DNA of 63,832 bases, filler included, from Globobulimina sp. (taxonomy: Eukaryota), in the NCBI GenBank assembly GCA_003354225.1. It is 55 parts of 55 records of this genome, joined end to end, with 100 filler letters (N's around TTAATTAATTAA, not from the genome) between each part and the next. Parts side by side here need not be neighbours in the genome. Positions count along the whole stretch, not along the records: positions 9,305 to 10,367 come from PIVH01024497.1; 54 more parts are not named here. The stretch is one strand, 5' to 3'. The notes beneath the pieces are model-generated. The model worked only from the letters and a program-made list of their open reading frames with translations, had not been told where the DNA came from and did not search any database. The position numbers and the translations under genes are program-made. Of this stretch, positions 9,205-12,113 are shown in pieces; position 1 is the stretch's first letter, and each line of letters starts with the position of its first letter.

Positions 9205-9305
9205 NNNNNNNNNNNNNNNNNNNNNNNNNNNNNNNNNNNNNNNNNNNNTTAATTAATTAANNNNNNNNNNNNNNNNNNNNNNNNNNNNNNNNNNNNNNNN
9301 NNNNG

Positions 9306-10256
9306 AATGCATATTTTGTAAACGAAATACATACAGAATGTGTTGAATTGTTTAAAAATATAAAATCATTCAATGATAAGATAGAGCCTGATCTATTAAC
9401 CTATAGATCGGTGTTGTTGTCATGCAGTAAAAGTGAACAATCTTTTGAGCTGAAACAAGAAATTCATGAATGCTTAAAAAATGCTGCAACAGCTCACTGG
9501 ATGTTGAATGATCCCACCATTCAATCAAACTTAATTGCAATGTATTCAGAACATGGAATGCTTGATGTTTGCCGAGAAATATTCAATCAACATATTGAGC
9601 TGAATGATGATGATAAACAAGCATTGGTTGTATGGAATGCAATGCTTCAGAATTACTGTCGGAATGGTTATTTACATCAAGCAAAAGTGCTGTATGAATC
9701 AATGAAAAAAAATTGTAACTTGAAAGCTGATATTTATACATATTCAATATTATTAACAGCATGCAGCCATTGCGACGATATGGAATACGCAGAGTATATC
9801 TGGTTGAATGAGATAAATGACATTGATATTAAATATCATTGTATTGTGATCTCAAATTTGGTGGATGCTTTTTCAAGAAACGGATATCTCCATCACGCAT
9901 TGGAATACATTCGGAAATATGAGGATATTGGATGCAATGTACCTCATCATCCAATGTGGAGAGCACTTCTAGGCGGAGCTGTTAAATGCAATAATATAAC
10001 AATGGCTCAGCATGTTTATGATGAATATAAACTGAGATTTAAGGATTCAATCAATTGTAAGGCAGCTACTAAGGCTACTTTATTATTGGCAAATTTATAT
10101 GCTTCCCATTCTAAATTTGATAAAGTTGATGAAATTAGAAATGGAATAATTGACAAATACAATGATAGTTGCCACCAAACAATCGGTTCGAAAGACTATT
10201 ATGAGGATGATTCATGTGAATTAGTATCAGAAAAAGAGTGTAGTGAAGTTTTTTGA
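9306..10256 (+). CDS. Pentatricopeptide repeat protein, PLS class with E1/E2 extension and no DYW domain, 5'-partial
   Basis: PDLLTYRSVLLSCS (L1), SNLIAMYSEHGMLDVCREIF (S1), VVWNAMLQNYCRNG (P2), DIYTYSILLTACSH (L2), SNLVDAFSRNGYLHHA (S2), MWRALLGG (E1), LLLANLYASHSKFDKVDEIR (E2). Confidence 0.88.
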   Translation, partial: NAYFVNEIHTECVELFKNIKSFNDKIEPDLLTYRSVLLSCSKSEQSFELKQEIHECLKNAATAHWMLNDPTIQSNLIAMYSEHGMLDVCREIFNQHIELNDDDKQALVVWNAMLQNYCRNGYLHQAKVLYESMKKNCNLKADIYTYSILLTACSHCDDMEYAEYIWLNEINDIDIKYHCIVISNLVDAFSRNGYLHHALEYIRKYEDIGCNVPHHPMWRALLGGAVKCNNITMAQHVYDEYKLRFKDSINCKAATKATLLLANLYASHSKFDKVDEIRNGIIDKYNDSCHQTIGSKDYYEDDSCELVSEKECSEVF

Positions 10257-10640
10257 GCAGTGTGTGGTGTGCAAGGATAAAATTTAAACTATGTGAGATT
10301 GATTGTAAAAAAAGCAAGTTTAAATTGTATTTAATTCACCATCCCCTTGGCCTACGTCCATCTACTCNNNNNNNNNNNNNNNNNNNNNNNNNNNNNNNNN
10401 NNNNNNNNNNNTTAATTAATTAANNNNNNNNNNNNNNNNNNNNNNNNNNNNNNNNNNNNNNNNNNNNTTTATACATGTTCGATTGTATGGTCATGTCATA
10501 ATAATATGTATAAATAACATTGTTTGCAGGTATGTTATTTGCTTCTAGTAGAGATCCATATTTTGCAGCTCTTTCTTTATGCTCTGTATACAACAAAAAA
10601 TCACGAATGGTGTATCGACTTTATGGCAAAAAAAGCAAAA

Positions 10641-11345
10641 TCAAATGGTACATATATAAATGAAAACAAAACAGCAAAATATTGTACCGACACACTGCCA
10701 TAAAACATGTTTCCAATTATCGTTAAACACACACGTATGGATTATTAATTCATTTATAATTATCGCTAATATGCCAGCGCCATCGTTGTCTGCTCTGTTG
10801 TCTATAAACTGCGAATTTGAAACATTTCCATAATATCCACTGCCGGAGTTCTTATACTGTGCGAAAGGAGCCATTATTACCGTGTGTCTGTGCCGTGTTA
10901 TTGACAAAAATGTTATCCTGCACAGTCATAAAATATGCATTCACTCCCACTTCTCCACCATAACCAGCTGCATTATTAACAAAGAAATTATCAGTGATGG
11001 ATGAATTTGTGCCACACCACTGATTTTTATCCTTCACCATCGCCAGAGAAATTACTGTCAAAATTGCATCCACTGATTTTTATGTCACATTCTTGCCCAT
11101 CTCTGGATATACGTTGGTATACGCTAATATTCCGCTGGATATTGCACCGCCTGATTGCAGCGCGGTATTATGCGCAAAATTACAGCCACACACTTTAAAC
11201 CAACAGTAAAAGGATTGCAGTGCACCGCCATGCGATAAAGAATTGATATTACCCACAAATGTGAGATGTATGCAGAAACTACGTTTAATCCAACGGCAGA
11301 TTGCGTGTTACTTATAAAGTCGCATAAGGTTATAAATAATGTCAA
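10641..11345 (-). pseudogene. Disrupted right-handed beta-helix (pectin lyase-like) repeat protein
   Basis: FVNNAAGYGG, FVNNTA and FIDNRADNDGAGI repeats split across frames, with stops. Confidence 0.55.
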
Positions 11346-12113
11346 GCCTTCAAGATCATCATAAAAAGAGGGAGATCATAATTGATTAGGAATTGTATTG
11401 CAATCAGACTAAATCAAAAGATTTGTGCAGGTTATAAATTCCCAATTTAATAATAACATCTGCGCAGTGATGATATTGTCGCAGGTGGCGCCATTACAGC
11501 ACAAATATTATTGTTTTCTTTATTCAAAAANNNNNNNNNNNNNNNNNNNNNNNNNNNNNNNNNNNNNNNNNNNNTTAATTAATTAANNNNNNNNNNNNNN
11601 NNNNNNNNNNNNNNNNNNNNNNNNNNNNNNGGCTTTGAAATACATATCACAGCACTCATAATCCATTGAGTAATGGTTATCTATCATTAATATGATTTAT
11701 CACTTTGTCCCGACGTATAACAGCATCAACTGCAGTAAAAATAAGTCATGTTTTTTTAATTTCTAACGAAATAATCAAGTACGTAGTGTACTTGAAATAA
11801 TGAGTATGTAAAGTAAAAGAAAAAAAAAGGTTCACACACAATACACAAGATAAATAAACTAGTTATCTTGCAATACAATACAATATATAACACAAAAGAA
11901 ATACGTATACATAACATTTACACAAAGAAATACGTACACATAACAATGTTCCTTTAGATTCATACAAAAACAAAATTTTATTATATTAAAACATTAATAC
12001 GGCAATATATTTAAAAATTTGTTTCATTAATTAAAAATTGTTACATCCTGTTAATTAATATATAAAAAAATTCTTTAAAATTATTTTCTGGCACAATTTT
12101 ATTATCTTCGCTA

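Follow-up and report, generated by a model that had tools for sequence, protein, structure and literature searches.

The window analysed here is a stretch of 63,832 bases in which 55 separate contigs, each 1061-1063 bp long and ordered by falling length, are joined by N44-TTAATTAATTAA-N44 spacers. Because of this make-up, the sequence on either side of the PPR contig is not the genomic context of the PPR gene. The GC content of the contig (Table 1) is mid-range among that of the other contigs in the window (0.24-0.45), in agreement with the remark of an earlier note on this DNA that the composition matches the protist contigs. In the frame of position 9306, the contig is open from its first bases to a TGA, giving the 316 codons of protein P0001. 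The motif names P1, L1, S1, P2, L2, S2, E1 and E2 follow the nomenclature in use for such proteins, and their borders were taken from the alignment of P0001 to the synthetic protein 9kfx.

Table 1. Features of the PPR contig, in positions of the window (aa, residues of P0001; alignment, to 9kfx unless stated; model, AlphaFold2).
Feature	Positions	Strand	Remarks
Contig	9305..10367	.	independent 1063-bp piece with N44-TTAATTAATTAA-N44 on either side; GC 0.328
CDS, 5'-truncated	9306..10253	+	316 codons; C-terminal portion of a long PPR protein of the PLS class
P1, partial	9306..9392	+	aa 1-29; 9kfx alignment, P0003 alignment, model; first residues off the contig
L1	9393..9512	+	aa 30-69, 40 aa; insertion ahead of the last residue; alignment, model, motif HMM
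S1	9513..9623	+	aa 70-106; acidic 6-aa insertion near the end; alignment, model, motif HMM
P2	9624..9731	+	aa 107-142; best Pfam PPR stretch; fifth residue N111, last D142
L2	9732..9839	+	aa 143-178; alignment, model, motif HMM
S2	9840..9947	+	aa 179-214; 4-aa insertion; alignment, model, motif HMM
E1	9948..10064	+	aa 215-253; 5-aa insertion in the loop towards E2; alignment, model, motif HMM
E2	10065..10169	+	aa 254-288; final helix pair; alignment, model, motif HMM
Acidic tail	10170..10253	+	aa 289-316; predicted disordered; most variable part between strains
TGA stop	10254..10256	+	no difference reported in the contigs of four covering runs (three studies)
Post-stop stretch	10257..10367	+	111 nt to the contig end; without similarity to DYW-bearing relatives

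P0001 belongs to the PPR superfamily (PF01535/PF13041), as seen both in its Pfam scores and in eight modelled helix pairs. The Pfam PPR model matches with E 3.4e-18 and 65 bits (cut-off 25) and PPR_2 with 64.9 bits (cut-off 30); PPR_1 and PPR_3 match as well. In a phmmer search of PDB sequences the top match was 9kfx (E 6.5e-35), a synthetic PPR-DYW protein with a crystal structure that includes its target RNA. Residues 26-279 of P0001 are colinear with residues 236-467 of the 9kfx chain (phmmer, i-E 1.5e-11). This alignment spans the chain's last L-S-P2-L2-S2-E1-E2 and stops at the start of its DYW domain; 9kfx continues from there into the deaminase, whereas the window protein stops after an acidic tail of 28 residues. 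Relative to 9kfx, P0001 has extra residues in four motifs, about 5 in L1, 6 in S1, 4 in S2 and 5 in E1. An AlphaFold2 model made with 57 relatives as input has a mean pLDDT of 90.2 and a pTM of 0.86, with the eight helix pairs at the motif positions; residues 297-316 fall below a pLDDT of 50 and are predicted to be disordered. When Foldseek was run with this model, 9kfx came second, with a TMq of 0.65 and an rmsd of 4.1 across 289 columns. P-type and PLS-type PPR designs scored about equally in that search, so the fold alone gives no class.

The class is read instead from the order of the motifs. The alternating P, L and S motifs and the final P2-L2-S2 that mark the PLS class are present in the 9kfx alignment and in matches to motif HMMs built from relatives. 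Each of the L1, S1, P2, L2, S2, E1 and E2 HMMs matched P0001 once, in that order, although this test is partly circular because the HMMs come from the same family. In full-length relatives, the E1, E2 and S2 HMMs match once each, at the C-terminal end. In P0003 and P0004 the L2 HMM, too, matches nowhere but at the C-terminal end, whereas in P0019 and P0053 it has weaker upstream matches; the L1, S1 and P2 HMMs match repeatedly upstream. The architecture of P0001 is almost certainly PLS-E. The plant-type PLS-E order proposed in the earlier note is thus borne out by the colinear 9kfx alignment, the eight helix pairs and the ordered HMM matches, and the linker insertions that it regarded as atypical of plant members are those counted above. 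P1, which it placed at the start of that order, is indeed there, but only in part, since the 1063-bp contig ends within it.

The tail (aa 289-316) has 8 D/E among its 28 residues, and a PG box, H-x-E and C-x-x-C are all absent from it. Pfam gave no match of DYW_deaminase or E_motif to P0001 even at E<=10. We also searched the whole window by tblastn with four DYW proteins (P0018, P0019, P0011 and P0020) and two DYW-less ones (P0003 and P0004); nothing was matched past position 10235 of the contig, and nothing elsewhere. The features of the DYW subclass (PG box, H-x-E and C-x-x-C-H) are therefore absent from P0001 by Pfam, by tblastn and by comparison with its DYW-less orthologs. The short acidic tail without PG box or deaminase described previously is confirmed. 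Of the profile scan that had been suggested, the PPR models came out positive and the E_motif and DYW_deaminase models negative at E<=10. The tail was also considered as a remnant of an E+ region, and this was rejected because its similarity to the P0011 sequence beyond the PG box is too weak.

P0001 has no match to the Pfam E_motif (PF20431) that would place it in the E subclass by profile, and the same model finds little in its relatives: at E<=0.001 it matches no more than 4 of 58 sequences, namely 57 relatives and the query. With so few family members recognised, the E region has diverged from the plant-trained Pfam model. Homology of the two degenerate motifs after S2 to E1-E2 is nevertheless found in three ways: in the 9kfx alignment, in a family E-region HMM and in the positions of E_motif in paralogs. 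The HMM was built from columns 214-283 of the query (49 rows) and searched against the 93 plant-like proteins. In 15 of the 17 that have H-x-E, the best match of this HMM is found 82-115 aa ahead of that motif; P0021 and P0073 are the exceptions. In the paralogs P0018 and P0019, Pfam places E_motif at residues 395-462 and 917-956, the stretch that aligns to about residues 230-281 of the query. PF20431 is also present in all 11 named plant matches (21-26% identity) from a word-based search for longer proteins.

In PPR proteins, the code for RNA recognition is described as residing in the fifth and last residues of each motif (PMC7190159). At these two positions S1 has S and A, and S2 has S and H, which are non-canonical pairs; only P2 (N, D) presents a canonical, readable pair. 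The putative code positions R34, D69, N111, D142, S147 and R219 are common to the orthogroup described below. These shared residues fit an RNA target that is conserved among the orthologs.

To place P0001 among other proteins, a HMMER scan was run over 1.84 billion representatives. It returned 7471 matches at E<=0.001, and the analysis rests on the best 150 of the 7471. The best match among the 150 listed is P0003 (1187 aa, E 1.8e-120), which is 67% identical to P0001 over 284 aa. P0001 aligns to residues 902-1182 of P0003, and P0003 ends 5 aa later, just past E2. P0004 (1129 aa) is 53% identical to P0001, and P0170 (851 aa), which came from the word-based search for longer proteins, is 51% identical. 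An exact look-up named P0003 as Bolivina argentea and P0004 as Nonionella stella, both from EukProt. The two are 52% identical to each other, which indicates orthologs of different species and not one shared contaminant. P0003, P0004 and P0170 have no DYW domain, and all three end shortly after E2. The DYW-less form is therefore kept in orthologs. A protein search near the query's own length gave a single weak match (P0002, 22% identity). The earlier note had taken the gene to be about 317 codons as seen; this does not hold, as the orthologs have 1129-1187 aa. In full-length relatives the N-termini appear by eye to be basic and poor in acidic residues; the N-terminus of the query lies off the contig.

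The C-termini differ within the orthogroup. Four of its members, P0004, P0009, P0170 and P0008, have a short acidic D-L-F-E/Q-type motif after E2, at or close to the C-terminus. The query ends differently (..SEVF), and Bolivina P0003 is almost tail-less. The D-L-F-E/Q-type motif could be a docking site.

The best-HSP scores of the 150 listed matches fall into two groups, 57 at 106 bits or more and 93 at 88 bits or less. We refer to the 57 as the family. Names were looked up for 26 of the 57, and the 12 that had one are all foraminiferal (5 Bolivina argentea and 7 Nonionella stella); the other 14 are nameless ENA, Logan or MERC records, so that a wider taxonomic spread of the family is possible. 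Four of the 93 lower-scoring proteins were looked up as well, and they are three land plants (two Diphasiastrum and one Adiantum) and one nameless record. A FastTree analysis of the query-homologous region included 112 rows with the query, that is, 111 of the 150 matches; the other 39 were left out as their best HSP does not span query residues 30-240. A single branch (100*) separates 54 family rows from 58 plant-like rows. The groups were pre-defined by BLAST score and the tree is unrooted, so this branch speaks for separation from the sampled plants and not for the origin of the family. The query, P0003, P0004 and P0008, which are the orthogroup rows retained in the tree, form one clade (100*). 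The assessment that the gene is not land-plant contamination agrees with these results: identity is 21-29% to plant proteins and 67% to the Bolivina argentea ortholog, and the clades are separate. Judged by these comparisons, the family is sizeable and lineage-specific and includes DYW deaminases, and the gene is of foraminiferal type, not plant. A foraminiferal or retarian origin of the gene is highly likely.

Pfam DYW_deaminase matches 8 of the 58 scanned proteins (57 relatives plus the query; best E 3.9e-31), and these eight members are scattered over the family tree. In an alignment of 25 DYW proteins (16 of them plant-like), every sequence has the H and E of H-x-E, and C-x-D-C-H is almost invariant. 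Related foraminifera have DYW paralogs in which the catalytic motifs are intact. As to the DYW partners that the earlier note had proposed to look for, such paralogs exist in related foraminifera, and the window itself contains no other PPR or DYW sequence. The PG box is recognisable in some of the foraminiferal-type DYW proteins. It is often altered (e.g., G/A-I/V-S-E-I-D-I), with H-S-E and C-x-D-C-H kept. The C-termini of the foraminiferal-type DYW proteins (P0019, P0053, P0115, P0085, P0126 and P0183-P0186) read NYY, DRY, DCY, DNY, DYY, EFY or DFY, not DYW.

A search for short stand-alone DYW proteins gave five matches, four of which are of foraminiferal type (177-295 aa). Two of these, P0183 and P0184, start within or just ahead of L2 and look like cut predictions. 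P0185 (177 aa) and P0186 (200 aa) consist of part of E1/E2 and an entire DYW domain; each may be a stand-alone trans deaminase or a mere fragment of a longer gene. A complex prediction between residues 959-1129 of Nonionella P0004 and the DYW domain of Nonionella P0019 (945-1086), made without alignments or controls, gave no verdict (score 0.00).

The contig is contained wholly or partly in eight sequencing runs from three studies, none of which is listed as RNA. Contigs of four runs (X1, X2, X6 and X7; three studies) were compared with parts of the stretch; an RNA label for X6 and X7 is a guess. Two runs are at least 99% identical to the contig, and the two others, from one sample, represent a variant at 95-99%. 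No joints were seen over the PPR stretch in the contigs of the four runs. One X2 contig extends 191 nt further upstream, and one X1 contig 249 nt further downstream. The X6/X7 variant has an in-frame 12-nt deletion at 10058, in the E1-E2 loop. Fourteen substitutions are listed within the ORF between the contig and the run contigs. In aa 1-283 there are four silent changes and three conservative replacements (R90Q, I175V and L199F), and in the 33 codons of aa 284-316 there are two silent changes and four replaced residues, two changes in one codon being counted together. These are small counts, and they fit a constrained repeat region followed by a freer tail. The X6/X7 variant, which comes from another study, also has a cluster of changes at 10194-10213. 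Several of the run contigs begin with what appears to be sequencing-adapter sequence.

The closest architectural counterpart is the E subclass of land plants. Plant PLS-E proteins are established to bind RNA with one motif for each base and to mark a cytidine. E-type PLS factors of Arabidopsis are reported to specify organellar C-to-U sites and to recruit MEF8/MEF8S in trans (PMC9522420). The land-plant proteins have the same C-terminal order as the query, P1-L1-S1-P2-L2-S2-E1-E2, likewise without DYW. The query is also colinear with a plant-consensus synthetic PLS-DYW protein, and its nearest named plant matches carry E_motif. The differences are that the query is only 21-29% identical to them, has insertions in L1, S1, S2 and E1 and fails the Pfam E_motif model, and that the array of the foraminiferan protein is much longer, to go by the length of its orthologs (1129-1187 aa). 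MORF helper proteins are described as restricted to seed plants (PMC13386178); thus, any recruitment mechanism in foraminifera must differ from that of plants.

Outside plants, lineage-specific PLS- or LS-DYW families and mitochondrial C-to-U editing are described for Naegleria gruberi, Acrasis kona and Physarum polycephalum (PMC4758236, PMC4202320). As presented there, these resemble the foraminiferal family in being lineage-specific, plant-like PPR proteins whose sequences group by taxon and give no hint of recent transfer. They are described via their DYW members, whereas the query and its orthologs are DYW-less and end at E2, and the Physarum homologs are mostly of LS type (PMC4758236), in contrast to the P, L and S motifs of the foraminiferal family. 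Within Rhizaria, the supergroup that also contains the foraminifera, paradinids (Ascetosporea) are described as having massive mitochondrial editing and one to three PPR-DYW sequences, that is, a plant-type DYW deaminase; according to the same account, rhizarian mitochondrial C-to-U editing had never been reported before (PMC11946409). The paradinid PPR-DYW proteins are said to group with fungal ones, and the other paradinid PPRs to be P-type (PMC11946409), a comparison that we make by description only. Against their one to three sequences, the foraminiferal family comprises 57 representatives (50% clustering) among the best 150 of 7471 matches. The count of 31 DYW domains in Rhizaria given in PMC13386178 may already include foraminiferal ones.

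Foraminiferal mitochondrial genomes have only recently been described and are still puzzling. In miliolids a conserved cox1 frameshift is reported that would need a post-transcriptional fix (PMC10127745); the passages of that paper available to us contain no editing analysis and no mention of PPR proteins. In the literature searched, the foraminiferal PLS family is undescribed, nothing was found on foraminiferal or Reticulomyxa PPR or DYW proteins, and there is no report of C-to-U editing in foraminiferal mitochondria.

We propose that the contig carries the 3' end of a gene for an organellar site-recognition factor that works with a deaminase supplied in trans, and we put the probability of this reading at about 0.6. 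The contig would then represent the 3'-terminal 316 codons of a foraminiferan (Rhizaria) nuclear gene. The full product would be a PLS-class PPR protein of the E subclass, about 1100-1200 aa long, with an array ending in ...P1-L1-S1-P2-L2-S2-E1-E2. The protein is predicted to be imported into mitochondria, where its repeat array would lie along single-stranded RNA, one motif per nucleotide, and recognise a specific sequence. E1-E2 would come to lie over the nucleotides directly upstream of the target cytidine. As the protein itself lacks a deaminase, C-to-U deamination would be performed in trans by the DYW domain of another member of this lineage-specific family, either a PLS-DYW protein or a short DYW protein. 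The parts of this proposal differ in strength. The protein very probably binds RNA in an organelle, and there is a slightly better than even chance that it specifies editing sites together with a trans deaminase. The link of the gene to RNA editing is a well-founded prediction.

Alternatively, the protein could have a different job in the organelle, as a PLS RNA-binding protein that acts, for example, in transcript stabilisation, end processing, splicing or translation, with E1-E2 as the mere end of the array. A few plant PLS-E/DYW proteins do function in splicing or cleavage and not in editing; the query has no deaminase domain, there is none elsewhere in the window, and the literature searched has no foraminiferal editing. 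We nevertheless consider such a job unlikely, as almost every plant PLS-E protein characterised so far is an editing factor and as DYW domains whose catalytic residues are intact persist in 8 of 58 scanned members of the family, the query included. Furthermore, the protist PLS-DYW families that were followed up are all described as showing C-to-U editing (PMC11946409, PMC4758236).

It is quite improbable that the gene is a decaying relic, i.e., a gene of PLS-DYW origin whose deaminase has been lost and which is now non-functional or near loss itself. The ORF is open over 316 codons, the stop codon is unchanged in the contigs of four runs and the indel between strains is in frame. In addition, the DYW-less orthologs with 67%, 53% and 51% identity come from three or more further sources, of which two are transcript-derived. 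What would speak for decay is confined to the tail, which is the part most variable between strains (four replacement and two silent changes in 33 codons) and which, past a 10-residue gap, aligns weakly to the post-PG-box stretch of Bolivina P0011, a hint of a DYW or E+ ancestor. Contamination with land-plant DNA, or very recent transfer from a plant, can be given hardly any credence. Apart from this gene, the architecture is typical of land plants, and plant-to-protist transfers have been proposed for other lineages (PMC11946409, PMC13386178). Against this, identity to named plant proteins is only 21-29%, all 58 plant-like rows stand across the 100* branch from the query family, the GC content matches that of the other window contigs and the insertions in the motifs are common to the foraminiferal relatives.

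On the reading as a site-recognition factor with a trans deaminase, these protists may edit mitochondrial RNA as plants do. That foraminifera possess a plant-like, multi-factor mitochondrial C-to-U editing system, with a large PLS expansion and DYW-less E members served by trans deaminases, is a tentative extension that we hold to be somewhat doubtful. If true, a 'split editosome' would have evolved beyond the land plants and with no use of MORF proteins, in which the short acidic D-L-F-E/Q-type motif would perhaps be the docking site. A conserved DYW-less orthogroup would extend the division of labour between recognition protein and trans deaminase beyond land plants. From a large PLS family of foraminifera that comprises E-type as well as DYW-type members, C-to-U sites are predicted to emerge when DNA and RNA of a single strain are compared. 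Foraminiferal mitochondrial editing and a trans-deaminase arrangement outside plants thereby become directly testable.

Two other contigs, placed next to the PPR contig in the window, also contain ORFs. The preceding contig (8142-9204) has an ORF of 289 aa with many N, K and E residues, which does not close before the 3' end of the contig; the second half of the ORF is coiled-coil-like in appearance, and the ORF is unrelated to the PPR gene. At 10468-11530, the minus strand has several short ORFs (73-94 aa) with glycine/asparagine-rich, repeat-like stretches broken by stops, which may represent a gene with introns or a decayed gene.
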